Assembly (NCBI RefSeq): GCF_030028105.1
Contig: NC_092381.1
Location: 64,258,505-64,322,504 of the forward strand
Reading direction: 5' to 3'
Origin: Mobula birostris
Lineage: Eukaryota
Length of the DNA: 64,000 bases
Shown here: positions 804-46,167 of the stretch, piece by piece
How positions within the stretch are numbered: position 1 is the first letter of the stretch
Layout of the letters: every line of letters starts with the position of its first letter
Position numbers and translations under genes: made by a program
The notes under the pieces: generated by a model
Told to the model about the DNA's origin: nothing
The model's input: the letters and a program-made list of their open reading frames with translations, nothing else
The model's database searches: none

Positions 804-995
804 ACACAAACTTGAAAAATCTGCAGATGCTGGAAATCCAAGCAACATACACGAAACGCTGGAGGAACTTAGCAGGCCAGGCAGCATCTATGGAAAAGAG
901 TAAATAGTTGATGTTTCAGGTCAAGACCTCAACTGTTCATTCTTTTCTATAGATGCTGCCTGGCCTGCTGAGCTCCTCCAGCATTGTGTGTGTCG
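804..995. mobile_element. Penelope-derived palindromic short element (hammerhead family, core deleted)
   Basis: Inverted arms GCTGGAGGAACTTAGCAGGCCAGGCAGCATCTAT / ATAGATGCTGCCTGGCCTGCTGAGCTCCTCCAGC; flanking direct repeat ACTGTTAGTT(C/T)TGTG at 789-803 and 996-1010. Confidence 0.8.
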
Positions 996-3889: not shown

Positions 3890-4235
3890 CCATCCATTCA
3901 GACAAAATAGCAGTGAGAGGAGTTGGTGGGTGATGGGCAGTAGTATGTGAAGGAAGAGTAAGAAACAGGGTAATCATGGCTGGGGAGAGTTTGTGTGTTT
4001 GTAGGAAGAACTGGGTAGATGAGGAGAGGGAAAAGGGACTGAGGGAGAGCAAGTTACACTGAAATTGGAGAATTCACATTTAAGCCCATGGTTTATAGGC
4101 AACCCAGGTGGAATATGAGTGCTGTTCCTCAGTTTGTGTTTAGCCTCATAGTCTGGCAGTGTACATTGAGGACTGACAGTTCAGTGTGGAAATGGGGTGG
4201 GAAATTAAAATGGCTTGCAAACAAGAGCTCCAGAT
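3890..4235 (-). mobile_element. Penelope-like element (PLE) remnant, GIY-YIG endonuclease C-terminus
   Basis: Minus-strand translation LLFASHFNFPPHFHTELSVL..HCQ followed by a frameshifted EQH...GLN segment resembles the vertebrate PLE C-terminal motif (VA.HFN.P.H...DLSV.GL....RKLEEQHLIF.LG.L.P.GLN). Confidence 0.7.
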
Positions 4236-4479
4236 TGCCATTACCTATGATTTCCAAGTTTGCTTCCATTGCTCGTATTAAAATAGAGAAACAATATTGG
4301 CTATTTTCCAATCCTTTGGAACATCACCAGTGCTGAAGTGAAAACAAAGATTGCTGTCAAGGTCCCAGTAATCTCCTCTCGTTTCTCTTGATAACCCGTG
4401 ATAGATCCCATCAAGCCATAGAAAGTTACCCACCTTAATGTTCTTCAAGAGATCCAAAACCTCCTCTCCTTGGTATCAA

Positions 4480-4611
4480 ACAACAGGAATTCTGCAGATG
4501 CTGGAAATTCAAGCAACACACATCAAAGTTGCTGGTGAATGCAGCAGGCCAGGCAGCATCTGTAGGAAGAGGTGCTTGGCCTGCTGCATTCACCAGCAAC
4601 TTTGATGTGTG
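4480..4611. mobile_element. Penelope-derived palindromic short element (young subfamily, centre deleted)
   Basis: Arms CACACATCAAAGTTGCTGGTGAATGCAGCAGGCCA / TGGCCTGCTGCATTCACCAGCAACTTTGATGTGTG; perfect 14-bp TSD CTCCTTGGTATCAA at 4466-4479 and 4612-4625. Confidence 0.85.
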
Positions 4612-5221
4612 CTCCTTGGTATCAACATGCCCTAGAACATCAGCATTGTCCCCCCCCCCCCCCATCCTATTATCCTCCATGCCCTCTTTGGTGAATACTT
4701 ATGTTAAGTACAGTTTACCCCCTGCTTTTAGTATGTATAAAATGTCTTGGGATTCTCTTTAATCTTACACAACAATGTCATTTCACAACCCCATGTAGCC
4801 TTCCTGATTCTCTGTTTAGTTTCTTTCCTGCTTCTTTTGCACTTCTCCAGGTTTCTGTCCTATTCAAGTACCTTAACCTAACATATACTTTTTGTTTTTG
4901 ACTAAATTTGCAACATCTCTCATCATACATAATTCCCAAATCTTGCCACCTTTGCTTTCCTTCCTTATAGGAACATGTTAGTCCTGAAATCTGACCAACT
5001 ATCTTTAAATGACTCCCACATCAGATGTTGTCTTTATCATTAACAACTGCTCCCAATCTACTCTCCCCAGCTCCTGCCTTGTAACAGTTTACATTTCACA
5101 GGTAATGTTATGTACAATATGAGATGTTAAAATTCAGATGTTCCTGGAGAGCAAAGTTAGTAGGAGAGCTGGATAAGGATATCACATCTTGCCATGATAT
5201 CATCAGGATCAGGTTAGTGTA

Positions 5222-6780
5222 CAAACCCCATTTCCAGAAAAGTTGGGATATTTTCCAAAATGCAATAAAAACAAAAATCTATGATATGTTAATTCACGTG
5301 AATCTTTATTTAACTGACAAAGGTACAAAAAAAAGATTTTCAATAGTTTTACTGACCAACTTAACTGTATTTTGTAAACATACACAAATTTAGAATTTGA
5401 TGGCTGCAACACACTCAACAAAAGTTAGGACAGAGGCATGTTTACCATTGTGTTACACCACATTTCCTTTTAATAACACTTTATAATCGTTTTGGAACTG
5501 AGGATACTCATTGTCGTCGATTTGCAATTGGAAATTTTGTCCATTCTTGCTTGATATAAGACTTCAGCTGCTCAACAGTCTGTGGTCTCCGTTGTCTGAT
5601 TCTCCTCTTCATGATGCGCCATACATTTTCAATAGGAGATAGATCTGGACTGGCAGCAGGCCAGTCAAACACACGCACTCTGTGTCTACAAAGCCATGCT
5701 GTTGTAGCCCGTGAAGAATGTGGTCTGGCATTGTCCTGCTGAAATAAGCATGGACGTCCCAGGAAGAGATGTCGCCTTGATGGCAACATACGTCTCTCTA
5801 AAATCCTAATATACACCTCAGAGTCAATGGTACCTTCACATACATGCAACTCACCCATGCTGTGGGCACTGATGCACCCCCATACCATCACAGATGCTGG
5901 CTTTTGCACCTTTCGCTGATAACAATCTGGATGGTCGTTTTCATCTTTGGCACGGAGAACTCGATGCCTGTTTTTTCTGAAAACTAGTTGAAATGTGGAC
6001 TCACCTGACCACAGCACACAGTTCCACAGTCTTTCGGTCCATCTGAGATGAGCTCGGGCCCAGAGAACTCGCTGGCGTTTCTGCATAGAGTTGATGTATG
6101 GCTTCCTCCTTGCATAATACAGTTTTAAGTTGCATTTCTGGATGCAGCGATGGACTGTGTTGAGTGACAATGGTTTTCCGAAGTACTCCCGAGCCCAGGT
6201 GGCTATAATTGTCACAGTAGCATGACGGTTTCTTAGGCAGTGCCGCCTGAGGGCTCGTAGATCACGCGCATTCAACAGTGGTTTCTGACCTTGCCCTTTA
6301 TGCACTGAGATGTCTCTGAATTCTCTGAATCTTTTCACAATATCATGTACTGTAGATGTTGAAAGACCCAAATTCTCTGCAATCTTGCATTGAGAAATGT
6401 TCCTTTTGAACTGACCAACAATTCTCTCACGAATTTTGGCACAAAGGGGTGAGCCACAACCCATCCTTGCTTGCAAAGACTGAGCCTTTGATGGACGCTA
6501 CTTTTACACCCAGTCATGATACCTCAGCTGCTACCAATTAGCCTGCACTTTTCAATCTTATTTTAACTCTGTCTCAACTTTTGTTGAGTGTGTTGCAGCC
6601 ATCAAATTCTAAATTTGTGTATATTTACAAAATACAATTAAGTTGGTCAGTAAAACTATTGAAAATCTTTTCTTTCTACTTTTGTCAGTTAAATAAAGGT
6701 TCACGTAAATTAACATATCACAGATTTTTGGTTTTATTGCATTTTGGAAAATATCCCAACTTTTCTGGAAATGGGGTTTG
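5222..6780 (-). mobile_element. Full-length Tc1 (DD34E) transposon with ~200-bp TIRs and TA TSD
   Basis: Starts CAAACCCCATTTCCAGAAAAGTTGGGA and ends TCCCAACTTTTCTGGAAATGGGGTTTG; TA on both sides; contains a transposase ORF. Confidence 0.97.
5508..6464 (-). pseudogene. Tc1 transposase, inactivated (first catalytic D->G; premature stop ~20 codons from the end)
   Basis: ATG at 6464 (MGCGSPL...); paired-like HTH; LWSGE instead of WSDE; FQQDNARPH...SPDLSPIE with 34-residue D-E spacing; TGA where the sister copy (29833-30297) reads LVSSVPKRL. Confidence 0.9.
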
Positions 6781-7230
6781 TAGTTATCAAGAGAACAGGA
6801 GCTTCCACCATCATTTAATATAATTTGTTCTGGGTTTCTGTTGACATTGGGATTTAAGTACCATATTTGCCTTGAAATAGCAAGTTTCTAATTTTCCAAG
6901 CATCTAGTTTAAGTGCTGCTTGTGACAAATCCTACAATGTTGAAAAAGGGAACTTGGACCAAATGCAAGGAGTTCCTCTCATCTAGACTCATGAAAGCAA
7001 TCATGTAAGCTGGACAAATATGAATGAGAAAAGACTCCTCAAAATATATGCTTTAAAAGCTCCTCTACTCAGCATTGATGTCTGAAAGAGTTTCTAGCAT
7101 GTCTCAAGGTGTGTGAGATGATGAGAGGAAGAGTTGCAGATGTATATCAAAGTCTTGGAGCAACACGCATTGGCATCACATTCACTAGGAAGTAGGTTGA
7201 GAATGCTGAAAATAACTTCAGTTCCGGCTC

Positions 7231-7781
7231 AACACACACAAAATGCTGGAGGAACTCAGCTGGTCAGACAGCAGTTTTGAACATGAAAAAACAGTCAATG
7301 TATCAGGTCAAGACCTTTCATCAGGACTGGAAAGGAAGGGGGGAGATTCCAGTCTAAGAAGGTGGGGGGTGAGGGGAAGGAGACCAATATAGAAGGTGAC
7401 AGTTGAAGCCAGGTGGGGGGGGGGAGGAGCCAAGGAAGTAGGAAGCTGGGTGCCTCTCCTTCTTCCCTTTCTCCCATAGTCCACTCTCCTCTCCAATCAG
7501 ATTCCTTCTTTTCCAGTCCTTTACTATTCCCACCTATCACCTCTCAGCTTCTCATTTCATTCCTGCTCTGCCACCCACCTGGCTTCACCCATCATCACCT
7601 TCTAGCTTGTCCTCCTTCCCTTTCCCCAATTTCATATTCTGACATCTTCCCCCTTCTTTTCCAGTCCTGATGAAGGGTTTTGGTCCGAAACGTCAACTGT
7701 TTGTTAATTTCCACAGCTGCTACGTGACCTGAGTTTCTCTGGCATCTGGTGCGAGTTTTTCTGGATTTCCAGCATCTGCAG
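7231..7781 (+). mobile_element. Penelope-derived non-autonomous element with inverted terminal hammerhead-bearing arms
   Basis: Left arm (7231-7330) is inverted relative to right arm (7655-7781); GA-rich/CT-rich internal region shared with copies at 13385, 21209 and 41073. Confidence 0.85.
7662..7699 (+). ncRNA. Minimal type I hammerhead ribozyme motif
   Basis: CAGTC-CTGATGA-A-GGGTTTTGGTCC-GAAA-C-GTC^AACTG: intact catalytic core, weak G-U-rich stem II, stem I with one mismatch, palindromic ACGT stem III; predicted cut after 7694. Confidence 0.7.
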
Positions 7782-8649
7782 TTTATTCATTTTTGGCTGT
7801 CATATCTCAGAACAGGAGTTCAAGCTACATCTCACAAATGAAAGGGAAATGTGCCAAACTTGGTGTACTATGTTTTCTTAGCCAAAAAAAACTGGAAATA
7901 CTCATTAAAAGAAACATCTACTAATGGCACCCATGTTTAATCAAATGAGTTAATTCAAGAACTGGAGTCATAAGATAATTAAACTGTTTAGCAGTCACTT
8001 TCATTTCAATATATTGTACGAAGGTCGCCTATTATTACAATGGAACTTCACACGTCACAACTGCTATAATGTGATAATGCAGAAGTAGACAAAATATACT
8101 TAACGTGACACAAGACCAAAATTGTGAAAATAATTACCCCTTAAAAAAATCATAGTATGTGGCATGCAAGTTTCAATGCTCAATCTGGTTAATATCAGAT
8201 ATTTATATTTTTTTAATGCATGCACTCTCCAGGGCTCACTAAAATAAGCAATATAAAATATTTGATATCCCCATATGACAAATTTACCAGCTTTATTTAA
8301 ATTGCAAACATTATAATATTTTATAAACCTATTTTATTAAAATTGTATCAGATTGTACAACTCACAGCTTTATTAAAATATTTTCCTTTCAATAATTTTC
8401 CATCTTCCTTTGTGCATGCAAATATACTAGGACAAGCAAAGAGCATTCAACCTGCTCCATCAGGTATAACAATCGTTTAAATTCACTCTCTCTACATTTC
8501 TCCATATCTGCCATTACCCTAATTTTTTTAAATAAATACCATTTTAAGATATTTCAACTCTACAATCACTGCCTTTTGAGACATTTATTCTGATTTTACC
8601 AAAGATCAGAATCGCTTATTTCTTTTAGATTTGATCATCAGAAGGTAAA

Positions 8650-9040
8650 GGTCACACACGCCATTAAAGTTCCCACCCTCTGGGCCATGTCATCTTTTCA
8701 CAGCTACCATCAGGCAGGAAGTACAGAAGCCTGAAGTCCCACACCACCAGATTCAAGAACTTCCCTTCAATCATTCAGTTCCTGAACCAACTAGCAAAAT
8801 GCTAATCACTACAGCTTATAACACTATGACTATTTTGACTACTTTGCACGGGAGTGGACCATTTTTAAAAAATTCTAATTGTGTTCCTTCTTGTAAAAAT
8901 TGTTCATAATTTATGCTTACCTCATTTATTTATTGTCAATGTTACTTGTATCATCCTAAGAGCCTGATACAGCTGAAAGTAAGTTTGTCATTACATCTGT
9001 GCGTATACTTATTTGTGTACAACATTTGACTCTGAATCAT
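8650..9040 (+). mobile_element. Rex1/Babar-like LINE 3' fragment
   Basis: HPLGHVIFSQLPSGRKYRSLKSHTTRFKN-like C-terminal motif plus 3' UTR. Confidence 0.7.
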
Positions 9041-10139: not shown

Positions 10140-10391
10140 CTGCAATATAAAGAAAGTATTAGTAGCTTTATTGTCCATTCTTTAAGCAGGTGAACTGGGT
10201 TTTACTTAAAAATGCATGAACCAATTGGTCTATTGTAAACTCATTAGTGTTCCAGTATAATAAAATTCCATGTCACTTACATTCATTCTACAGTTATCAT
10301 TCTCTTCTTGCATTATATTCTAAATACCATGCATGTCCTAACAAAGCAGTTTTATCTTCTTACAATGTTGTTCTTGTAAGCTCTTTATGAA

Positions 10392-10480
10392 TCCAGATGA
10401 AGGGTCTTCACCCACAACAACCACTGTCCATTTCCCTCCACAGATGCTGCCTGACCAGCTGGGTTCCTCCACCATCTTGT
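10392..10480 (+). mobile_element. Degenerate Penelope hammerhead-arm fragment
   Basis: CCAGATGAAGGGTCTT...CAGATGCTGCCTGACCAGCTGGGTTCCTCCA similar to the family arms; core mutated. Confidence 0.6.
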
Positions 10481-10950
10481 TTTCACCACTTTGAAACCTG
10501 TGTTTGTTAACTACTACCCATAGCTGACTGAAGTAAATACATAAAATTATGGAAACATTCAGTAGGTCAAGCTGAATCTGTGATACATAAAAAATAGGCT
10601 TTAGATTTCAGATCAAGACTATTCATCAGAATGTAACAATGAGAAAATGTTAGGTTTAAGTTGCAGATCAGGTGAGTGAAAGATAGAGAGAAGAATGGAA
10701 TATCCTTGATAGGATTAGGCTGGGATTACTATGGTTATTCACTGCCTGGTTGACAGATTAATAAGAGCTGTTAGAGCAAAAACACAAAGAAAGGAACAAC
10801 ATGAGGGCTTTGAATTACAGATCAGAGCTTTTGCAAAGACCCAAAACCGGAAGAATGCTGGAAATGCGCAACAGATCAAGCATAGTTTCACTAACACACA
10901 TAAAATTCTCTACTTTCTCTTTTGACCAATAACTCTGTGGTTTGAGCAAA

Positions 10951-13384: not shown

Positions 13385-13690
13385 CTCCTCCCCTTTCCCT
13401 TTGTTCCATCGTCTTCTGTCCTTTCCTATTAGATTCCCCCTTCTCCAGAACCTTTATCTCTCTCAGTAATCAGCTTCCCAGCTCTTTACTTCACCCCCCG
13501 AGTTTCACCTATCTACCACCTTGTACTTCTTCCTCTCCCCCCCCCCCCACTTCTTTACACTGACTTCTCCCCTTTCTTTCCAGTCCTGTTGAAGGGTCTT
13601 GGCCAGAAACTTCATCTGTTTACTCTTTTCCATCAATCCTACCTGACCCGTTGAGTTCCTCCAGCATTTTGTTTGTGTTGGGATTTGCTG
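13385..13690 (+). mobile_element. Penelope-derived element, right arm with decayed hammerhead
   Basis: CT-rich body then CAGTCCTGTTGAAGGGTCTTGGCCAGAAAC (core CTGA->CTGT) and GAGTTCCTCCAGCATTTTG. Confidence 0.75.
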
Positions 13691-13789
13691 TCTGATTTCC
13701 TCCACAAGTAAGAGTACATAGTTAAGAAATCATACCTAAGTTTCCAATCCTAAACTCTGGAGGCAAGCAGCAGAAAATTGCAGGTTATT

Positions 13790-14799: not shown

Positions 14800-14888
14800 A
14801 TATAAAGAGAATCTGATGGATAAAGGGAGAAGTTAATGTTTGAAAGAATGGCAGGTGAACTGCAGGTTTGAACAGAGCCATCTTCTGT

Positions 14889-16525
14889 AAGGGATTCTTG
14901 TATACTTTAATATACAAGGGATTAATCTGCAAGGGATTCTTGTATACTTTAATACAGCGGTCCCCAACCACCGGGCCGCGAAGCATGAGCTACCAGGCTG
15001 CGAGGAAACGATATGATTTGGCAATATGAGTCAGCTGCACCTTTCCTCATTCCCTGTCGTGCCATTACGCATGCGAGGTCATTACCAGCGCGTCATCCGT
15101 GTCAGCGTGGGAAGGAGATCAACTCCTTAAGCTTGCAAATGATGGCGGGCTGAAAGGTATGTTTGACATAACATCTCTGCCGGTATTCTGGATCAAACTC
15201 AAGGCTAAATATCCTGAGATAGCCACGAAAGCACTGAAAACGTTGCTTCCATTTCCAACATTTTTCTGCAAGGCGGAGTTTTCTGCAATGAATGCAACGA
15301 AAACTAAATTGCGGAATAGAATGGACATAAGGAACCCCATTCGAGTATCGCTGTCTCCCATCACCCCTCGATAGGACCATCTCGTTGCAGGGAAACAAGC
15401 CCAGGGCTCCCACTGATTCAGCGATATTGGTGTGTTGCAATGATTTCATATGTTCATACGAGGAAAATATGTGCTGTGTGTTTAATATCCAAACAATACT
15501 TAAAATGTTATGATGCTATTGACTTACTTTATAACCATATAACAATTACAGCACGGAAACAGACCATCTCGGCCCTTCTGGTCTGTGCTGAATGCTACTC
15601 TCACCTACTCGGCCCATAACCCTCCATTCCTTTCCTGTCTATATACCTATCCAATTTTTCTTTAAATGATAATATCGAACCTGCCTCTACCACTTCTACT
15701 GGAAGTTCGTTCAACACTTACTTCAAGCTCCCCTGATAAGTGACTTATCACTATATTCATGCGAGGAAAATGTGTGCTGTGTTTAATATTAAATTTGTTA
15801 GATAAACCCTTTTAGAAACAAAATTGAGTATATTAGCCACTTATCGCCTATATTCCAGTCGTGATTAACACCCCCTTCCGAACAGAATCCCCAAGAATGA
15901 TTTGAAGAAGAAGAAGAAAAAAAAAAAATCAGCAGGTACATGCATGCGCAGGTCACGCATGTGCACTGACGCCCGCACAAGGCTTCATGGTCATTGTAGT
16001 CTTCCTCTGGGTAAACAACGTATTTGACTGCTACTCTTGTCCATTGGCAATCCTACCCCCCGCCCCGCCCCGGGTCAGCCGGTCTGCAAGGATATTGTCA
16101 ATATTAAACCAGTCCACAGTGCAAAAAAAGTTGGGGACCCCTGCTTTAATATGCAAGGGATTAACCTGCAAGGGATTCTTGTATACTTTAATATACAAGG
16201 GATTAATCTGCAAGGGATTCTTGTATACTTTAATATACAAGGGATTAATCTGCAAGGGATTCTTGTATACTTTAATCTACAAGGGATTAATTACAAGGGA
16301 TTCTTGTATACTTTAATCTACATGGGATTCTTGTATACTTTAATATACAAAGGGATTAATCTGCAAGGGATTCTTGTATACTTTAATCTACAAGGGATTA
16401 ATTACAAGGGATTCTTGTATACCTTAATCTACATGGGATTCTTGTATACTTTAATATACAAGGGATTAATCTGCAAGGGATTCTTGTATACTTTAATATA
16501 CAAAGGATTCTTTGTATACTTTAAT
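14889..16525 (+). repeat. 42-bp minisatellite (AAGGGATTAATCTGC + AAGGGATTCTTGTATACTTTAATATAC) split by a hAT insertion
   Basis: Units at 14889-14954 and an array at 16144-16525. Confidence 0.95.
14955..16143 (+). mobile_element. Non-autonomous hAT (Charlie/Buster/SPIN-like) element with transposase C-terminal remnant
   Basis: TIRs CAGCGGTCCCCAAC / GTTGGGGACCCCTG; 8-bp TSD CTTTAATA (14947-14954, 16144-16151); hATC dimerisation remnant FWIKLKAKYPEIATKALKTLLPFPT...KQAQGSH. Confidence 0.92.
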
Positions 16526-17270
16526 AGATTTATAGAATTATGCAGCACTGAAATAGGCCCTTTGACCCAATCTGTCCATGCCAACTAAGTTGCCTACCTG
16601 AGCTAGTCCAACTCTCCTAGTCTGGCCCATGTCCTTCTAAACATTTCCTATCCATGCATCTGTCTAAATGTCTTTTAAATGTTGTAATTATGCCCATCTC
16701 TACCATCTCTTCTGGCAGCACATTTCATATGCTCAAGTCCCCTTTTAGTCTTTCTCCTTTCATCTTCAACCTATGTCATCTAGCTTTATACTCCCTTACC
16801 TTAGGAAAACTGATCATCCACTTATCCATGCCCCTCATGATTTTTTATACCTTTATAAGGTCAACCTTTAGCTCCCTCTGCCTCCAGGGGAAAAAATTGT
16901 CTCAGTCTATCCAGTCTCTCCTTGTAATTCAAGCACTCCAGTTCTGGTGCTATTCTTTACTGCACTCTATGCACTTCAATGACATCAATCATAGCATCGT
17001 AGCTAGGTGACCATAACTGCACACAATACTCCAAGTCTCACCAATGTCCTATATGGCTATAACATGATATCCAAGCTCTTCAAACACAATATCTTAACTG
17101 ATGAAGGCAACTGTGGAAAGGTCTCTACATCACCATGTCTACCTGTGTTGTCATATTCAAGTAACTATGTACTTGCACCCTTTCGTCTCCCTTTTCGACA
17201 ATACTCTCTAAGGCTCTGACATTTAACTCTGTATATCTTGCCCTGGTTTAACTTCCCAAAATGCAAGCTG
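16525..17270 (-). mobile_element. CR1 LINE 3' fragment
   Basis: Typical CR1 tail (CAGCACTGAAATAGGCCCTTTGACCC read on +) and decayed ORF2 end. Confidence 0.75.
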
Positions 17271-21208: not shown

Positions 21209-21480
21209 GTGCCCTTCCTCCTTCCCTTTCTCCTATGGTCCACTATCCTCTCCTGTCAGATTCCTTCTTCTTTAACCCTTGAGCTCTTCCACCCATCACT
21301 TCCTAGTTGCTTACTTCATTGCCCTCCCCCACTGACCCATCTTTCTATTCACCCAGTCTCACTTGTCACCTGCCAGCTTGTACTCATTCCACTCCCCACC
21401 TTCTTATTCTGGATTCTTCCCCCTTCCTTTCCAGTTTTGATGAAGGATGTCGCCCCAAAACATTAACTGCTTTTTCCTTT
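21209..21480 (+). mobile_element. Penelope-derived element, decayed
   Basis: CT-rich body plus CAGTTTTGATGAAGGATGTCGCCCCAAAACATTAACTG (degenerate hammerhead arm). Confidence 0.7.
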
Positions 21481-21589
21481 CTTAATTGCTAGATTGTTGA
21501 TAGATACTGAAACATGCTCCAGCCAAGATTCTTTAAGCTCAATGGAAGGATGAGTAAATCTCCTTGGCCAGCACCCTCAGGACTGAGGC

Positions 21590-24715: not shown

Positions 24716-26615
24716 GCTGATTATTAGGTTGCTATTTTATTAGATGGTTTTCTCTGAAATAATTGTCAGTGAATAAATTACTTCTGAAGTAGAATCAGTG
24801 TTATTTTGTTTGACATGGTATCCTAGCAATTATGTTCGATTAGACACTCAATGTTTAGGAATTCAAATAGCTAGTTGCAAATGGCTCTGAAAAAAAATAT
24901 GGAAGTAGTCAGATCTCTTCAGACAGTTCTTAGTTCACTAATATTCTTCAAACAAAGGAACTTGCCATACAGTCTACTTGGAAACAAAGAACGTTTTTTT
25001 AAACGATTGTATTAACCAAGATATATGCACCAGTTTAAATGTCTGGTAATGCAGCTCTTAATTCTCCCTTGGCCTCTGTAAAACTGCAGTGTGCCTTCCA
25101 GTCATCAGGCACAGGAAGCAATTAGATAAAGTGCTCACATTGCTTCTGGCCAGGAAAGCCAAAATATAATAAAAAGTTTAAATGCAATTTAATGTAGTTC
25201 ATTATTGCAATATTACAAAGCATGATGAATGCCAGTTCATTTTCAGGTTATTGAATTATCTCTGGTAAATTAGATTAGGGTTTGCATTGGTAGAATCCAA
25301 AAGTCACTTTTTTTTATTTTTAGTGCACATTTACATATGTGTTCATTGAAGTTCCTTGGAACGGGAATATGTTTGAATTAGCATTTCTGAGGTATTGCCT
25401 ACAATATTCCAACCATTAAAGTGAATGATCCATTAAATGTAGACTCTGTTTTCCTGGGTTTCCAGTCTGTTGTGTTGTCCCCAGGCAAGACTTCCTATAG
25501 ACCTTTTAAATATTTCCTACAAATAAAAGAGTGGTCCAAACTAGGAGCAGAACACAAGTTCTCTGTCCTGCTTTGCACTTGTGTAATATTTTAATTCCTA
25601 GCCAAGTTTAAAATCTTTCTTAAATTGACTTTAATGAAACCAAATCATAATTCAGTGTGTTGAATAAAAGGGCAGTTTTATTTTGTTTTTGATTTATGTC
25701 TGCAGTCAGGACTAAGAATAGGTCCTGAGAAGTATTTTTACTGGCAAGAAAGGACTGATGTTTAAAGCAAGAACAGAAAGCATCAAACTTTAGAGCTGTC
25801 TCCATCACTAGAATGCACTTAAATTCCTCAAAGAGAAATTTATAATAGGTTTGGCAGATCTCCATAAAAAGGGCTCAAATCTGATGCCTGGATGGCAAAA
25901 TATACAGGCAGATGATGGATTACTGAAAGGGAAGTGAGCTCATTGCAGTACATAAAGTCTTAAATCTTATAGGCAGACTGAGTATGGAATATTACTTACT
26001 AAACACGGCAAATTTCAAGTGAAAACTATTTTTAAACTTATAAAAAAAAACTTTACTCTGAGGGTGATACATGATCGAGAAGGTGAGGAAGGAGGATTAA
26101 GATACTGTGTAGCAAGAATCTAACTCTGAGACACAAACTATTAGGAGGATCAAGAACTGCATGGTATTTTCACTGTCTCAATTATTCCAACTGTTTGCCC
26201 TGCTCCATTCTACTCACCATAAACTTTAAGTCATTGAAATGTTCGTAGTTTCTGTCATAACTGAAAATAAGTCCCCGGATTTACCATAATTCTTGTTTGC
26301 TAATCCATACAGGGCCTTACATAAGCCGTATCACAATTTTATATTTCTTATCCCTGCTTTCAAATCTTTCCATGGTCTCTCCAGCCTCATCTTTGTAATT
26401 TCATCAGCTCCGTAAGCCTCTGAGATTCCAACATATCTTAAATTCTAAACCCCTAGTCATTCCAGATATAATTGTTGCATATCTGATGGTCGTACCTTCA
26501 AATGCCAAAGCCCTTAAGTTCTGGATTTCCCTTCTTTGCCTCTCAAATGCTACCTTAATGTCTTTCATAACAACCTCTTGAAACGTGGGAGATACAGTAT
26601 TGCAATATTTTCTTA

Positions 26616-26828
26616 CGCAAACAACAGGACTTCTGCAGATGCTGGAAACTCAAGCAACACACATAAAAGTTGCTGGTGAACGCAGCAGGCCAGGCAGCAT
26701 CTCTAGGAAGAGGTGCAGTCGACGTTTCAGGCCGAGACCCTTCATCTGACGTCAACGTGAAACGTCGACTGCACCTCTTCCTAGAGATGCTGCCTGCCCT
26801 GCTGCGTTCACCAGCAACTTTTGTGTGC
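26616..26828. mobile_element. Penelope-derived palindromic short element (young subfamily)
   Basis: Near-perfect inverted arms; TSD TGCAATATTTTCTTA at 26601-26615 and 26829-26843; minus-strand hammerhead with core mutation CAGATGA. Confidence 0.88.
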
Positions 26829-28369
26829 TGCAATATTTTCTTATGAGTTTTACCTCAGTCCTGAAATTCAAAACTCAGATTCAAAAAGGGCACATCGTAA
26901 ATTTAAGTCCAAGTTTTAAAACTATTTTAATCAAAGATATACTAAAGATCTTTTCTGATTAATTGGCTTACATACACCCCTTTCAAAAAATAATTACAAC
27001 TGTGACTTCATGTACTGAGAGGCATAATATAAGTAAAATTTCACATGTAGATTTAGTGGGTTCTCAAAATTGCTGCAACAGATCAAAGAATCAGAACTCA
27101 GAACTGGTCATAATCATTGCCCCCCCCCAAAAAAAAAGACTAAGGCATATTTTAAATGCTTACCTTACACAAATTTTAAACTTTTGCAATAATAGCAAAT
27201 CACATTTATTAGCTTTATGCTTTCTTTGCAGAAGCTTTGATTATGTAAAGTACATACTGCCTGGATGAGAACATCAATTGCTCTCAATTATTAGTTACTC
27301 GGGCTATATCACACCATTGTGGAACTTGCCAACCACCAGCAGAAAACCTAAATTGCCCTCAAAATTATCTAATTGGAACCAGTCTTAATTTGTTTGTTCA
27401 GCAGTGACACTTTGCCCCCTGTACTGTTTGTAAAAAAATGTCCTTGAATCATACAGCTGTTAAAAAGCTGTTGAAGATTGTGCTGAGAGCAGTTTTTGCC
27501 CAGTGCTGAATATATGTTGACTAGCAAGCCTTCCCTTCCCGTCAAGATCTATTCTCTGCTCTAGTCAGTTTCAGAAAGTCACTTGCAGCATTCGCATTCT
27601 TCTCCTGGAGATAAGCTGCATAAATGAAATGGCCGATTTAGCCCTTTCTACTAAGACTGCTATTGATAAATCTTTCTGATTCTGCTACTTCTGTAGAGCT
27701 CAAGTGTGCAGCCCTGCCTGGCTGACAACAGAAACTGTTGTACATGAGTACAGTACCATCATCATATTAACTGTGATTACAGCATATTTTGTCTCACAGC
27801 ATTTCAGCCTGTGTTCACAGCACAAGACAGTCCCCATCAGTTGCATGGATTGCTACCAAATGAAATTCTTGTTTGTATGGGGAGTTCTGGAATGGACTAA
27901 TGACTGCTTTTATTTTCCAATTGGCTATTAATTACCCATTACTTTTCACAAGCCAAAAAACACTTGACATTTTATAACTACAAAATTTAACATCAAGAAC
28001 CATTCTTGGAAGGGCATGTGATCCAGAACAAAATCACAGCAGGAAATGGCTTGCTGAGCATTCTTTACTGGTGTGTATCATATGCCTAGTCCCAAGTGAG
28101 TAACATTTAAAAAGGAACAAAGGAAGAATAAGTCAGAAGTCAGGATCACTCAGAAAGAAAATTTTGAAAGTAATGTTTGCAGCTCCATCTCCATCAATTA
28201 TTCAGCATCTTTTCACAATGATCTGAGCATATTGTGTAACTGATACACACAGGCACATTAATCTAATAATCAAGCAGCTACTGCCTCTCAGGGGCTCATC
28301 CCTGGGCAGGCATACTTGGTCTAAGGTTTCTGCCACAGACATCAAAATCAGCATTAGAAGAATACTTAC

Positions 28370-29216: not shown

Positions 29217-31262
29217 CAGCAGTCCTGAACCACTGGGCTACGGACTGGTACCGGACACAAAGCATGTGCTACCGGGCCGTGAGGAAACGATATGAGTCAG
29301 CTGCACCTTTCCTCATTCCCTGTCACACACTGTTGAACTTGAACATAGGGTTGCCAACTGTCCTGTATTTGCCAGGACATCCCGTATATTGGGCTAAATT
29401 GATTTGTCCCATACAGGACCACCCTTGTCCAGTATTTCCGCTGCTAAGGTACAGCTTTCCTATGAAACTATTCGTGCGGAAATGGCGTAAAGCGAAGAAG
29501 CAATTACCATTAATTTATATGGGAAACATTTTTGAGCATTCCCAGACCCAAAAAATAACCTACCAAATCATACCAAATAACACATAAAACCTAAAATAAC
29601 ACTAACATATACCAAACCCGATTTCCAGAAAAGTTGAGATATTTTCCAAAATGCAATAAAAACAAAAACCTGTGATATGTTAATTCACATGAATCTTTAT
29701 TTAACTGACAAAAGTACAAAGAAAAGATTTTTAGTAGTTTTACTGACCAACTTAATTGTATTTTGTAAACATACACAAATTTAGAATTTGATGGCTGCAA
29801 CACACTCAACAAAAGTTGGGACAGAGGCATGTTTACCATTGTGTTACATCACCTTTCCTTTTAATAACACATTTTAATCGTTTTGGAACTGAGGATACTA
29901 ATTGTAGATTTGCAATTGGAAATTTTGTCCATTCTTGCTTGATATAAGACTTCAGCTGCTTAACGGTCCGTGGTCTCTGTTGTCTGAGTCTCCTCTTCAT
30001 GATGCGCCATACACTTTCAATAGGAGATAGATCTGGACTGGCAGCAGGCCAGTCAAGCACACACACTCTGTGTCTACAAAGCCACGCTGTTGTAGCCCGT
30101 GAAGAATGTGGTCTGGCATTGTCCTGCTGAAATAAGCATGGACGTCCCAGGAAGAGACGTCGCCTTGATGGCAACATATGTCTCTCTAAAATCCTAATAT
30201 ACGCCTCAGAGTCAATGGTACCTTCACATACATGCAATTCACCCATGCCGTGCGCACTGATGCACCCCCATACCATCACAGATGCTGGCTTTTGCACCTT
30301 TCGCTGATAACAATCTGGATTGTTGTTTTCATCTTTGGCACAGAGAACTCAACGCCCGTTTTTTCCAAAAACAAGCTGAAATGTGGACTCATCTGACCAC
30401 AGCACACGGTTGCACAGTCTTTCAGTCCATCTGAGATGAGCTCGGGCCCAGAGAACTCGCCAGCGTTTCTGCATAGAGTTGATGTATGGCTTCCTCCTTG
30501 TGTAATACAGTTTCAAGTTGCATTTCTGGATGCAGCGACGGACTGTGTTGAGTGACAATGGTTTTCCGAAGTACTCCCGAGCCCAGGTGGCTATAATTGT
30601 CACATTAGCATGACTTTTCTGTGCACTTTTCAATTTTATTTTAACTCTGTCCCAACTTTTGTTGAGTGTGTTTTAGCCATCAGATTCTAAATTTGTGTAT
30701 ATTTACAAAATACAATTAAGTTGGTCAGTAAAACTATTGAAAATCTTTTCTTTGTACTTTTGTCAGTTAAATAAAGGTTCACGTGAATTAACATATCACA
30801 GATTTTTGTTTTTATGGCATTTTGGAAAATATCCCAACTTTTCTGGCAATGGGGTTTGTAGTAAAAGCAGGAATGATATGATAAAGACACAGCCTATATA
30901 AAGCAGAAATAATGTATGTACAGTGTAGTCCGGAAGATTAAGCCAAAACCGATTTGTGGGGAAAAAAAAAATCGGCACGTATGCGCCTGCACATGTCACA
31001 TACGCGCACGTCACGCATGAGCACACAGGTGCCCGCGCAAGGCTTCATGGTCATGGTAGTCTTTCTCAGGGTAAACACAAGTGTCCCGTATTTGACTGCT
31101 ACTTTTGTCCCTTATTTGGCAGTGAGAAAGTTGGCAACTCTAACTGTAAAAGATATGTTGAGCTGAGTTTAACACTACTTGCACACCAGCCCCCACCCAC
31201 CGGTCAGTCCGCAAGAATACTGTCAATATTAAACCGGTCCGCGGTGCTAAAAAAGGCCCCTG
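29217..31262 (+). mobile_element. Composite hAT non-autonomous element containing a Harbinger-like TIR pair and a nested Tc1
   Basis: Ends shared with the 14955 element; internal AGGGTTGCCAAC (29347) / GTTGGCAACTCT (31130-31141); possible TSD CTTCAACA/GTTTAACA. Confidence 0.8.
29612..30858 (-). mobile_element. Internally deleted copy of the 5222-6780 Tc1 family
   Basis: Same TIRs and TA TSD; transposase pieces at 29833-30297 and 30349-30633; N-terminal DNA-binding region deleted at ~30615. Confidence 0.95.
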
Positions 31263-33283: not shown

Positions 33284-33678
33284 AACACAAAAGATTCTGA
33301 AAATGCTGGAAACCCAGAGTAACTCACACAAAATGCTGGAGGATGTTTGCACAACACTATTACAGCTTGGGGTATTGGAGTTCAGAGTACAATGCTGGCA
33401 GCTGACTTTAAGGATTTTGTACCTTCTCCCCATGACAACATGAGTTTCCTCCATGTGCTCCAGTTTCCTCCCACAGTCTAAAGACTAACAGTTAGTATAT
33501 TAATTGGGCATTGTAAATTGTCTTGTGATTAAGCTAGGGTTAAATATGTGAGTTACGGGGTGGTGTGGCTTGAAGGCCTGTTCTGCACTGTATCTCTAAA
33601 TAAAACTCAGTCGATTACACAGCATCTTTAGAAATGAAAACAGTTGATGTTTTGGGCCAAGACCATTCATCAAGACAG
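33284..33678 (-). mobile_element. Penelope-derived arm interrupted by a V-SINE
   Basis: ACACAAAATGCTGGAGGA at ~33328 resumes as AACTCAG...GATGTTTTGGGCCAAGACCATTCATCAAGAC after the SINE. Confidence 0.7.
33346..33603 (+). mobile_element. V-SINE (HE1-like)
   Basis: Homologous to 12320-12595; V-domain GTGCTCCAGTTTCCTCCCACAGTC. Confidence 0.8.
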
Positions 33679-34217
33679 ACTTTCTTAATAGAGGGGTATA
33701 AAATTTTCATCAATCAATAATCAAATACAGATTACTGACAAATACCCTGTAGATGAGGTAACATCTGACGATAGGGTAACAAAAATAAGATTTCAGGTCA
33801 ACAACCTTTTATCAAAATGTTACTGAATCTCAAAGTTTATCTTTTTTATATGAAAAGATTTGAGATATTTCTGAGATGCAATATGAAGTTCACTAAATGA
33901 ATTAAGAACAAGAGCAGTTTTCTGCAACTGCATAATTAAACCCAAAGAGTCAGTCAAGATTATGCTTAGTGTAAACAAAATTTATAGAAAGAATTATTTT
34001 TCCAGGTATCATCAGTAAGTCAGCAGCATCAGAACTGAATAGTACTTAAGGCATTTTTGACTGACAGTATGGACTTGGGTCTATTGAAGAGAATATGCCA
34101 GCAACTTGGGTGATAGTATATTGAATGTACAGAGGGGGGAAGAAAAAGAGGGTCCATGAGCTGCAAGAGCAACAAAAGTGCTGATGAGAACATTATGATA
34201 AACTGTGAAGGTATGAT

Positions 34218-38014: not shown

Positions 38015-38680
38015 CTGGTAAGAGTCACAAATTGATTTCTCACTTACAGTGCTAAAAACTCAACTGCCTTTCTGTCAAAGTCATTCAGAAGCACCTTCAA
38101 TGGTAACTCAAACCATAAAAAAATCTATTTTCCTTCTCTGGCAGAATACACTGCTGACCCTCTACTTTGTTTAATATGATATCTATTAAAATGTGAAAGC
38201 TTGCTAAGACATGCAAGTGAGTCACTGATTTGTTGCTGCATGAAATATAGAAGCAGTGAAGACACACCTTTTGCTTGTGAGATCAATTTTTAAATCAAAA
38301 TAATTTGTTACGACACATCATCCAGCCTACCTATAGATTGCAGATCATTACAGTAATATGTACGTATATTACAGAACACTTACTTGCACCTGAAATGTCA
38401 GAATGTGTCAACATTTTTGAATAAACTCCCTTTTCAGATTTTAAGCGATTATTAGTGATTAAAGCAGATCTAGCAATGTCAGCCCATCCATTGTAATTAC
38501 TGCAAATTACTATGTAAATAATGAATACACCAAGAAGACCTGATATGTTCAATGCCAAACCTTCACTCTCACACCTCCACTATTCTCAACATGATAGAAA
38601 AGGTCTATTAATATGCAATAGAATGACTTAATTTAGTGATACAATTGAGCAACTTCCAAAGCTAACAATTGATATCTCTC

Positions 38681-38899
38681 ACAAACAAGAGAAAATATGC
38701 AGATGCTAGAAATCTAAGCAACACACGCAAAATGCTGGAGGAATTCAGCAGGCCAGGCAGCATCTATGGAAAAGAGTACAGTCGATGTTTCAGACTGAGA
38801 CTCTTCAGAAGGGTCTGAGCTCGCAACATCAATTGTACCCTTTTCCATAGATGCTGACTGGCCTGCTGAGTTCCTCCAACATTTATTGTGTGTTGGTTG
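38681..38899. mobile_element. Penelope-derived palindromic short element
   Basis: Inverted arms fused at CTTCAGAAG; TSD AATTGATAT(C/T)TCTC at 38667-38680 and 38900-38913. Confidence 0.85.
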
Positions 38900-39389
38900 A
38901 ATTGATATTTCTCCCTACATCATTCTATTAAATGATGAATAGTGTTTTTTTGAATGACAAAGGTAAATGTATCTGACTACAATACCACAGTTGTGACATA
39001 TAACTGGGAACTGGTTTTTCAGCATACATACACCTATTGTTTTTCAAAGTACAATATGGCATTATTCCAAAACCTTTACTGAAACTTAGTAAATGATGAT
39101 TAAATTGACTGGGAAAATGCTGTAATATTTTTATGAGTTATTTACTGACCATCTGTTGTCATTGATCAGTGATGGGGAAACGGAGATCAAGGAAGTATTG
39201 TTCATTTAATACAAGATTTATATTTCTATATATACACTGAGAGAAGCAGTACAATTTATAAAAAAGGGAGAAGAGGCATTTTTCTAGAGCCATATGTTTT
39301 ACCACCAGCAAGAGATCAGATCTTGCTGAATTTGTTGATAAATAAAAAACCAGAATTGGTTAACAACCTGAAGACAGATCTTTGAAAAT

Positions 39390-41072: not shown

Positions 41073-41345
41073 GCAAACATGAGAAAATCTGCAGGTGCTG
41101 GAATCTTCTACCCTCTCTCATCAGATTCCCCTCCTCTAGCACTTTATCTCTTTCACCAATCAACTTCCCAGCTCTTCATTTAGCCACCCCCCCCCACAGT
41201 TTCACCCATCACCTGCCACCTTGTACTTTTTCCTCTGCTCCCCCCACCTTCTTGCTCTGACTTCTCATCTTTATTTCCAGTATCAACTGTTTATTCATTT
41301 CCATAGATGCTGACCAACCTGCTGAGTTCCTCCAACCTTTTGTTT
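41073..41345 (+). mobile_element. Penelope-derived element nested in the Rex1-like LINE
   Basis: AAATCTGCAGGTGCTGGAA head, CT-rich body, AGATGCTGACCAACCTGCTGAGTTCCTCCA arm; hammerhead core deleted. Confidence 0.75.
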
Positions 41346-42956
41346 AAAAACCAGTGCTGATCAACTGGCTGGAGTGTTCACGAAGATCTTTAACCTCGTA
41401 CCTTAGCAGTCTGAGGTAACTACCTGCTTCAAGCAGGCTTCAATTATATTGATGCCCAAGAAGAATGTGGTAACCTGCCTCAATCAGTATTGTCCAGTAG
41501 CACTTACATTCATTGTGACAAAGTGCTTTGAGAGGTTGGTGATGAAACATATCAACTTCTAGCCGAGAAGCCGCTTGGGTTCAGTCCAATTTACCTACCA
41601 ACACAACATTTCATTGACTCCTCGTTCAATCCTGGAACATCTGGACAACAAAGGTGCATACATCAGGATGCTCTTTATCGGCATTCAATACTATCATCCC
41701 CTTAAAACTAATCAATAAACTTCAAGACTTTGGCCTTAATACCATTGGCAACAACATCTCCTCCACAGTCACCATCAGCACAGGTGCATCACAAGGCTAT
41801 GTGCTTGGCCCCCTGCTCTACTCACGTCACACCTATGACAGTGTGACTAAGCATAGCTCTAATGCCATACTGAAGTTTGATGACGACACCACTGTTGGAG
41901 GTTGAATCAAATGTGGTGATGAATCAGCATATAGAAGGAAGATTGAAAACCTGGCTGAGTGGTGCCTTAACAACAACATCTTACTCACTGTCAGCAAGAC
42001 CACGGAAGTGATTATTGATTTCAGGCATAGGAAACCAGAGGTCCATGAGCCAGGGCCCATCAGGGGATCAGACGTGCAGTGGGTCAGTGACATTAAATTC
42101 CCTAGCGTTATCATTTCGGAGAACCCGTCTTGGGCCCAGCACTTAAGTGCAATCATGGAGAAAACATGGCAGTGCTTCTACTTCCTCAGAAGTTTGCAAA
42201 GATTCAGCGTGACATCTAGAACGTTGACTAAATTCAAAAGATGTGTGGTGGTGAGTATATTGTCTGGTTGCATCACAGGGCTTTGGTGTATGGAAACGCC
42301 AATGCCCTTGAATGGAAAATCTTACAAAAAGTAATGGATATAGCCCAGCCCATCACAGGTAAAGCCCTCCACACCAGTGAGCACATCTACATTGAGCATT
42401 GTCAGAGAAAAACAGCATCCATCATCAGGGACACCCATCATCCAGGTCATGGTCTCTTTTCACTGCTGCCATCAAGGTGGTGGTGTAGGAGTGTCAGGAT
42501 GCACCACAAAGTTCAGGAACAGTTATTAGCTCTCAACCATCAGGCTGCTGAACCAGAGAGGATTAACTTTACTCAACTTCACTTGCCACATCACTGAACG
42601 GTTCCCATACCTTATGGACTCACTTTCAGGGACTTTCCATTTCATGTTTGATATTTATTGCTCATTTATTATCATTTCTTTTTTTAATCTTTTGTACATT
42701 TTTTGTCTTTTGCACGTTGGTTATCCATCTGTTAGGTGTAGTCTTTCATTGATTCTATTACTGTTATTAGATTTATTGAGCATGCCCACAAGGAAACGAT
42801 TCTTAGGGTTGTATATGGTGACATACATGTACTTTGATAACACGTTTACTTTGAACAAGATATAAATTGATCACATGGTGTATAAGACTGAACTGTAATG
42901 TGTATCAATAGCAGGGAGTATTCAAATAAATAATTGATATTGTACTAAATCGAATA

Positions 42957-44415: not shown

Positions 44416-44642
44416 ACGTTGTGAAGTTTGTTGACTTTGCAGCAGCGGTACAAAATAATAGTGAAAAAACTGTGAATTACAGCCTTCACACTTCTGTACC
44501 TCGTTGCTAATGGTAACAATGAGAACAATGCATGGCCTGGATGATGGGGGTCCTTAATGATAAATGCTGCCTTTCTATGGTATTGCTCCTTGAAGAAGTC
44601 CTGGAAACTACGGAGGCTAGAGCCCTTGATGAAGATGACTCA

Positions 44643-44849
44643 AACACAAGGAATTCCGCAGATGCTGGAAATTCAAGCAACACACATCAAAGTTGCTGGT
44701 GAACGCAGCAGGCCAGGCAGCATCTCTAGGAAGAGGTACAGTCGACGTTTCGGGCCGAGACCCTTCGTCAGGACGAACGTTGACTGTACCTCTTCCTAGA
44801 GATGCTGCCTGGCCTGCTGCATTCACCAGCAACTTTGATGTGTGTTGCT
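44643..44849. mobile_element. Penelope-derived palindromic short element (young subfamily)
   Basis: Near-perfect inverted arms; TSD TG(A/G)AG(A/G)TGACTCA at 44630-44642 and 44850-44862. Confidence 0.88.
44739..44774 (-). ncRNA. Minimal type I hammerhead ribozyme motif (best-preserved copy)
   Basis: Minus strand GTC-CTGACGA-A-GGGT(CTCG)GCCC-GAAA-C-GTC^GACTG: intact core, 4-bp stem II with tetraloop, GUC triplet; predicted cut after 44744. Confidence 0.75.
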
Positions 44850-46167
44850 TGGAGGTGACTCAGTTTACTCTGCTTTGATCCTATGCGGTAAACCCCCCAG
44901 ATGGTGATGCAGCCAGTTAGAATGCTCTCCACAGTACATCTGTAGAAATTTTCATGTGTTTTTGGTGACATACCAAATCTTCTCAAACACCTAATGAAAG
45001 ACAGCCACTGTTGTGTCTTCTTTGTAGCTACACCGATATGTTGAGTCTAGGTTAAATCTTCAGAGATATCAACACACAGGAACTTGAAATTGCTCACTCT
45101 TTCCACTTCTGATCCCTCAATGAGGACTGGTGTGTGTACCTTCCTCTTACCCCTTTTAAAGTCCACAATCAGTTCTTCAGTCTTACTGATATTGAGTGCA
45201 AAGTTATTGCTGCGACACCACTCAACTAGCTGATATACCTCTCTCCAGTACACTCTCTTATCACCATCATGCATAAGAAAAAGAAACTGAATATGAATTA
45301 ACAACTGGTACCCTTCATAGTGAAGGTCATCTCTTTCTCCAATATCTGTAATTGATCTTACTCAGTGATACAGATCAGTATTGGGATATCAAATTCTTAC
45401 CATGTAGTGTATAGCACTAATTTATATCAAACAAATCACAACTGCATTCCCCAACTTTCAGATGATACCACATCAAGAAAATGTTTAGTAGCTAGTGAAT
45501 AAAAGTTGCAAGAGAGGCTGACAGACAGGACAAAACAGCAGATGGAATTCAATGTTGTGAAACCATAAGGTCACCCATGGTTTGATCTGAGAAAGATAAA
45601 AATCTGACAAGGATAATTTGGAATATTTCCTTCATGGAAAAAATTTTAACTGCAGATTTGGGCATCTATGTGCATAAATCACTGGAAGCTTTAGTTCAGA
45701 TAGACAAATTAATCCAAGGCTAATATAAGCTTTCATTTTTTGGGGATCTATATTTCAAAAATGATGCTTTGTTTAAAATACCGGAGCTGATAGTAAGTAA
45801 TTGATCTGAAAAGTTAATTCTGTTTCTCCCTTTTCAGTTGCTGCATGACCTTCTGAGTTGTTCACTGCTTTTACTCAAGAAACATTGCTCTGCAGGAATT
45901 GCAGTGACATGACTTCCCAAAAATAAAATTAGGCCTCAAAGTGTAAAAATATAGGGTTGCATAAATTTATCTAAAACTCACACAAATTCAGAAAGGAAAA
46001 AATTATTTTCACAAAGATATGTTCTTTTAGTTCATAACAGATCTTACAGCTGGGGCAATTTCACTACATTAGAAGAAAAGACCTTGTAAAACTACAATGA
46101 ATAGACAAAAATTTAAATGTAAGGTGAAACTATAAAGTCAATAGCAGGATCCTTAATAGCATAATGT

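Follow-up and report, generated by a model that had tools for sequence, protein, structure and literature searches.

The hammerhead-bearing repeats of a 64,000-nucleotide stretch of the Mobula birostris genome (contig NC_092381.1, positions 64,258,505 to 64,322,504; hereafter the window) are, with a probability of roughly 0.8, the 5'-truncated and often 5'-inverted 3' ends of a protein-coding Penelope-like element (PLE), which encodes a reverse transcriptase (RT) and a GIY-YIG endonuclease and whose minimal hammerhead they carry. The repeated unit (hereafter the arm) is the 3' repeat of the PLE itself and is continuous with the open reading frame (ORF) in longer copies. The initial annotation, made from the window alone, had recognized a Penelope-type minimal hammerhead mobilized by a PLE, and this was borne out. 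Its further proposal of an ORF-less, retrozyme-like non-autonomous family was not: the arm is the RT plus GIY-YIG element's 3' repeat, short and long copies have their alleles in common, and tandems were found at one of 52 sampled loci. Penelope ends with minimal hammerheads have been described from many animals, so the repeats are of a known kind and, as a family, ordinary.

Link of the arms to an RT and GIY-YIG element

Twenty-five loci picked solely by the hammerhead core have a common 3' end and differing 5' ends. Five of them (L005, L014, L015, L020 and L022) continue upstream into GIY-YIG coding sequence, and L005 reaches the YIDD motif of the RT. Among 30 loci picked by the RT, 14 have a strict hammerhead match 1,348–1,471 bp downstream on the same strand, and most of the others align through the region. 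The mobilizing PLE that had been postulated should share the terminal repeat, and an autonomous-type element of this kind was found: in L076, two hammerheads 3,534 bp apart flank a frameshifted RT and GIY-YIG ORF, the hammerheads lying within a 194-bp direct repeat. This ORF comprises RT motifs, a C-x4-C-x2-C linker and a GIY-YIG domain of the CCHH type, with two cysteines between GIY and YIG and downstream histidines visible in the translations. Weak Pfam matches to RVT_1 and GIY-YIG were obtained for L078. In L076–L078 an ORF with an RT plus a GIY-YIG domain at its C terminus is placed between terminal repeats; every long copy examined is frameshifted or truncated, and no intact ORF was present among 8 long copies.

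The best protein matches (77–88% identical) are named from Mobula hypostoma and Hypanus sabinus. According to the available excerpts of PMC8557442, Neptune and Nematis have a CX2-5CxxC linker between RT and endonuclease, which Penelope/Poseidon lack. Judged by the linker motif alone, which fits Neptune or Nematis and not Poseidon, the element is likely of the Neptune type. PLE endonuclease sequence is also contained in three NCBI host-gene models from Hypanus and Mobula, namely a divergent kinase, mucin-2 and a chitinase-domain protein (P0003, P0005 and P0015), through either exon capture or annotation error.

The copy at position 7231 of the window shows the same link. A PLE ORF lies directly upstream in 17 of its 29 best genomic homologues, with the endonuclease part in 16, and this ORF mostly stops about 80–160 bp before the equivalent of position 7450. 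The GIY-YIG relic annotated at 3890-4235 is weak in the window itself (tblastn 4072-4248, 33%, E 0.002) but clear in 17 of 19 genomic homologues; it is a decayed C-terminal GIY-YIG coding piece with the 3' UTR of an older related PLE (3890..4248, minus strand). No hammerhead arm was detected after the relic at that locus, and about half of the 19 homologues have a decayed arm downstream at the expected place. The relic thus comes from an older PLE relative and not from one that partners the neighbouring copies.

The hammerhead motif and the integrity of its cores

The motif is composed of stem I, CUGANGA, an extra A, a G-rich stem II, GAAA, a loop-less ACGU helix III and GUC, as annotated; the features by which a minimal hammerhead is recognized (core letters, an extra base after A9 and a palindromic, loop-less helix III) are all present. 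Positions are given below as offsets, where 0 is the G of GTC just before CUGA and the predicted cut comes after +30. A profile derived from 13 arms recovered 20 arms in exactly the 11 loci named previously, and none in reversed control DNA. The consensus proposed earlier equals the column majority of 30 copies of an older subfamily, except for the base after the cut, which is CpG-decayed.

Two cores had been called intact. The type I hammerhead at 7662..7699 (plus strand; predicted cut 7694/7695) keeps every core letter, but the closing pair of stem I beside the cut, C7666-A7695, is mismatched; its stem II includes two G-U pairs. The motif at 44739-44774 (minus strand; predicted cut 44744/44743) keeps the catalytic letters, but its stem I is reduced to 3 pairs because the copy begins at 44774 (offset 0). 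The remaining arms of the window are decayed or cut within the motif.

The G-C pair assumed at 10.1-11.1 turned out to be a minority allele in the young subfamily, where base 11.1 is U in 45 of 61 arms (G-U in 45, G-C in 15); G-C is the majority in the older subfamily. By hand count, 70 of 100 cores among the matches listed have G-U instead of G-C. Other CpG letters are decayed in just 1–8 of the 61 young arms, and therefore the main source elements had the G-U pair. L290, L300 and L301 represent a third subfamily of arms, whose stem II loop and downstream sequence are distinct. Rfam scans gave no hammerhead family match for the window (E up to 1) or for one intact copy (E up to 10), and the miRNA-like Rfam matches obtained are explained by fold-back copies.

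Copies within the window

The main arm of the 7231 copy (7450..7797, plus strand), identified by the profile and by homologues, is the 5'-truncated 3' end of an older-subfamily PLE and consists of a pyrimidine-rich 3' UTR, the hammerhead, a downstream repeat and a tail of about 40 bp from about 7758. It is accompanied by an inverted 5' arm without a tail (7228..7420, minus strand; 72.5% identical to 7571-7757), inside which lies a decayed hammerhead with a broken GAAA box (7292-7329, minus strand). No target duplication was found for this copy. In the predicted fold of 7228-7800, nearly the whole 7662-7699 motif is paired to the antisense arm.

Other fold-back copies are located at 804..993 (minus arm tailed, plus arm without tail; target duplication of 10 bp or longer), 4476..4619 (young, cut downstream of the hammerhead; 14-bp target duplication), 26615..26831 (young, each arm cut within the hammerhead; 15-bp target duplication), 38680..38903 (older; target duplication of 9 bp or longer), 41073..41346 (old and rearranged) and 44638..44853 (young, 94–95% identical to RT-linked copies; 7-bp target duplication). 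The minus arm of the last starts at 44774. Two old, decayed, convergent arms occupy 10383..10631. Solo arms of the older subfamily with decayed cores are found at 13387..13693 and 21209..21490 (both plus strand; the 3' part of the latter is missing), and an old arm at 33284..33696 (minus strand) is split in two by an unrelated repeat.

Repeats of other kinds were also noticed. Two copies, about 94% alike, of a 1.2–1.6-kb element with inverted ends of about 215 bp are present at 5220-6784 and 29613-30862, and this element resembles a DNA transposon or MITE. A minisatellite-like array spans 16144-16526, with a related piece 1.2 kb upstream (14884-14954).

Abundance

The density of this family, described earlier as very high, is about one remnant per 6 kb in the window and in sampled stretches alike. 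The sample comprised 31 stretches of 10 kb at arbitrary round coordinates on large contigs, and the profile search of these 310 kb detected 66 arms in 52 loci, from which a genome total of about 670,000 remnants is extrapolated. In the 4.01-Gb genome, the exact 34-letter core has 6,161 matches, a looser core (every conserved letter, three pairs in stem I and either G-C or G-U at 10.1-11.1) 51,525, and the 30-letter stretch just downstream of the motif 63,097, with 0 matches in each backwards control. The scale, both in cores with all conserved letters and in remnants per kilobase, is of modest note, and insertion junctions can be counted because young copies number in the tens of thousands. 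Repbase or Dfam may already list the family.

Anatomy of the insertions

The 3' ends of the copies form two groups about 40 bp apart, the difference being the tail, which is found on a single arm in all 7 window palindromes. Forty of the 52 sampled loci are solo arms, 10 are divergent inverted, one is direct and one convergent. Five window palindromes are flanked by 7–15-bp target duplications. Truncation at the 5' end, an adjacent inverted copy, a 30–40-bp tail at one end and target duplications are likewise described for insertions of EN+ PLEs of the Neptune and Nematis types (PMC8557442, PMC3846280, as excerpted), with which the element also has in common a single ORF with RT and C-terminal GIY-YIG, a cysteine linker and partial tandems.

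The short copies could instead constitute a self-propagating, SINE-like non-autonomous family with its own start site, re-copied in trans by the PLE protein. Their sharp common 5' end and defined 100- or 135-bp units would suit such a family, and excerpts of the literature indicate that PLE promoters can be internal (PMC2377424) and that pLTRs can mobilize sequence in trans (PMC3846280). We nevertheless consider this improbable, as the short copies have no private alleles: four polymorphisms (offsets 22, 36, 48 and 86) occur at equal frequency in 47 short and 48 long young arms. U at 11.1 is found in 32 of the 47 short and 35 of the 48 long copies. Given these shared allele frequencies, the short copies are not a separate lineage; moreover, the same short product would result if transcription of the autonomous RNA began internally, close to its front (PMC11167929, in part).

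Less probable still is a non-LTR retrozyme, in which tandem units would be cut by dimeric hammerheads, circularized and reinserted by a PLE. Rare mini-tandems do exist (129 close junctions genome-wide, including an array of 40-bp whole-motif units in L312), but a direct tandem was found in a single one of the 52 sampled loci, and just one of 102 copies starts near the cut site. The paired arms are inverted, so that in RNA they would pair the ribozyme away, and retrozymes are defined as tandem repeats in the excerpts available of PMC7229834 and bioRxiv 10.64898/2026.07.22.740005. The L312 array (G000:C4:178772335-178772527), with about six 40-bp units that are each a whole minimal hammerhead, is the nearest thing to a retrozyme seen here.

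With the repeats taken as PLE 3' ends, the PLE protein would nick DNA and, some 65 or 105 bases downstream of where the cut is predicted, prime reverse transcription, and synthesis that stops early or folds back would yield solo arms and palindromes. The template RNA would still be uncut, because most copies span the cut site.

5' ends and a possible transcription start at stem I

The 5' ends were mapped for 102 unique young arms around 99 of 100 loci among the matches listed for the 30-letter downstream query, anchored downstream of the motif. Forty-six arms extend at least 95 bases upstream, 22 start at -2..+1 and one starts within 2 bases of the cut on either side. The pile-up at -2..+1 (p 4e-20 against a uniform distribution) includes 13 non-inverted and 9 inverted copies. 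Exact copies with a non-element base before A(-1) number 2,580, and 29 or 30 of the 30 viewed copies with an A(-1) start are truncated at that point. Within a set of 30 copies that include the ORF start, 2 of 20 measured begin at -8..+5, and 2 more do so by eye among the other 10, so that the pile-up is weak in this set.

Cleaved RNA was considered as the usual template and rejected, with 1 of 102 starts near the cut and 0 of 20 among the ORF-start copies; as 46 of the 102 arms run far upstream and just one starts near the cut, templates are normally uncut. We lean towards the view that about a fifth of young copies reach the true 5' end of the RNA, which would put the start of transcription on stem I's first strand. 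The site fits the pyrimidine-pyrimidine-A initiator consensus. If the RNA starts there, the transcript would have the ribozyme at its extreme 5' end.

A splice acceptor, pausing or microhomology joining might also have produced the pile-up, an explanation that concerns the start-site step only and to which we assign a lower, though still substantial, likelihood. Upstream of the motif, just before +1, lies a pyrimidine tract that ends in AG, an intron of D. virilis ends at helix I (PMC4209133, in part), and six junctions overlap target sequence. On the other hand, 15 of the 22 piled-up starts lie at -1..0 or -2, and 4 more at +1, so that most include letters upstream of the AG; no common upstream exon is visible; and if a helix caused pausing, this should occur on its 3' side.

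For a transcription start at stem I, an untemplated G could serve as a trace of the cap, as it has been read at full-length 5' ends of LINE-1 and SVA (PMC4859970, in part). The evidence here points both ways. A G stands before 8 of 11 starts at -2/-1, and the foreign base before A(-1), counted by hand in 100 among the matches listed, is C in 44, G in 33 and A in 23. At junctions fixed by a target duplication, the extra bases end in G in 4–5 of 9, and 6 more join by microhomology; this comparison was confined to rows with a detected duplication (15 short copies, L176 being dropped as spurious).

Junctions at the predicted cut site

Genome-wide, 129 places show a new A(-1) start no more than 12 bases after the 3' part of a hammerhead, and in 20 of these mini-tandem junctions, from about 18 loci, C17 is exactly where the upstream piece ends. 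In 100 among the matches listed, C17 is the commonest exact join by hand count (16, vs 7 for +37 and 4 for +33); a further 8 listed rows end at C17 and are joined to starts at -2..-6. The 30 junction loci viewed are 5' add-ons to ordinary short copies and not insertions into older copies. L469 offers another junction beside the cut site: a hammerhead piece that stops at +28/+29 runs into the beginning of a longer copy.

Together with the stem I pile-up, the C17 junctions hint at occasional cleavage in vivo and a start on the ribozyme. They are a lead only: a six-base palindrome is centred on the cut site, a preference is also seen for other end points, and few such events occur. A bolder proposal, which we put forward as tentative and rather doubtful, is that stem I's first strand is where capped RNA begins and that the ribozyme acts as a self-decapping switch removing the first 32 bases, with the C17 joins as fossils of cleavage. 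For such joins to arise, the reverse transcriptase would have run off the 5' end and jumped onto the 5' cleavage fragment of a partner RNA, joining exactly at C17.

Stem covariation and predicted folding

Compensatory stem changes were not seen among the subfamilies within this genome, where covariation is invisible because the stems barely vary between subfamilies. A candidate stem I subfamily with covariation, in which the inner pair of stem I is T-A, was discarded, as its 117 matches resemble decayed copies of the main family. Metagenome loci with the same core (at least 123) gave 94 distinct motifs, picked by core match and of unestablished kinship to this family, in which the four positions left free by the search pattern pair in stem I in 84, 84, 73 and 56 of 94, vs shuffle maxima of 77, 54, 45 and 42, related rows being counted repeatedly. 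Such pairing in sequence data supports the hammerhead architecture, and not the activity of this family. The metagenome contigs concerned (L320-L442), probably animal host DNA, contain a wide variety of minimal-hammerhead families whose stem I clearly covaries.

The best predicted fold of the monomer is a rod, in which G5-G8 pair with 15.2-17 (-12.6 vs -8.6 kcal/mol for the hammerhead fold). In the two-strand prediction, the six-base palindrome around the cut beats the four-base helix III (-20.5 vs -13.3; the full active dimer lies outside this score). Since the rod wins in the monomer and the palindrome in the two-strand fold, low or assisted activity is expected, and the hammerhead is predicted to cut weakly, requiring either a dimer or the help of a protein. 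Low or assisted hammerhead activity is documented for S. mansoni (PMC4209133) and for PAc of Anolis (PMC11167929), both sources being available in part. The predicted inactive rod of the monomer would keep most templates uncut.

Comparison with known systems

The literature is compared here as far as the available excerpts extend. The minimal hammerheads of PLEs described in PMC4209133 have in common with the present family the type I topology, a short helix I, an extra base between 9 and 10.1, a palindromic 15.2-16.2 and no loop 3. As here, they are mostly single motifs of truncated PLEs, with opposite-strand pairs 100–700 bp apart. They differ in helix II (3–4 bp here vs 7–8 bp in S. mansoni) and in the conserved G10.1-C11.1, which is G-U in most young copies of this genome. 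Thousands per genome are reported there for fish, coelacanth and frog, and the looser-core count given above is several times the 4,000–9,000 of that report. Cartilaginous fish are not named in the excerpts available, and its supplements may include elasmobranch motifs. Its discussion treats the in vivo role of the PLE hammerhead as an open question.

A sharp 5' pile-up at the front edge of the hammerhead, as found here, is not mentioned for EN+ PLEs in the excerpts of PMC8557442 and PMC3846280. The Poseidon element PAc of Anolis (PMC11167929) resembles the present one in that the tail arises because RT starts at two sites downstream of the hammerhead and uncut RNA is the main template. The ORF of PAc starts at stem II, whereas the long ORF here apparently starts after the tail, and for PAc no RNA ends were detected at the cut site, in contrast to the 20 genomic junctions on the cut here. 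Non-LTR retrozymes (PMC7229834; bioRxiv 10.64898/2026.07.22.740005) share the type I hammerhead and the link to PLE pLTRs; as described there, they are ORF-less tandem arrays with mostly canonical hammerheads and circular RNAs, whereas the repeats here are dispersed solo or inverted ends of an autonomous element. The supplements of the bioRxiv report cover one cartilaginous fish and so may list this or a related family. A literature search retrieved no paper on Penelope elements among stingray transposable elements.

The stem I pile-up and the cut-site junctions constitute two precise predictions for CAGE and cyclic-phosphate sequencing. If the C17 joins are indeed cleavage fossils, they would represent genomic evidence of in vivo cleavage by a minimal hammerhead of a PLE.
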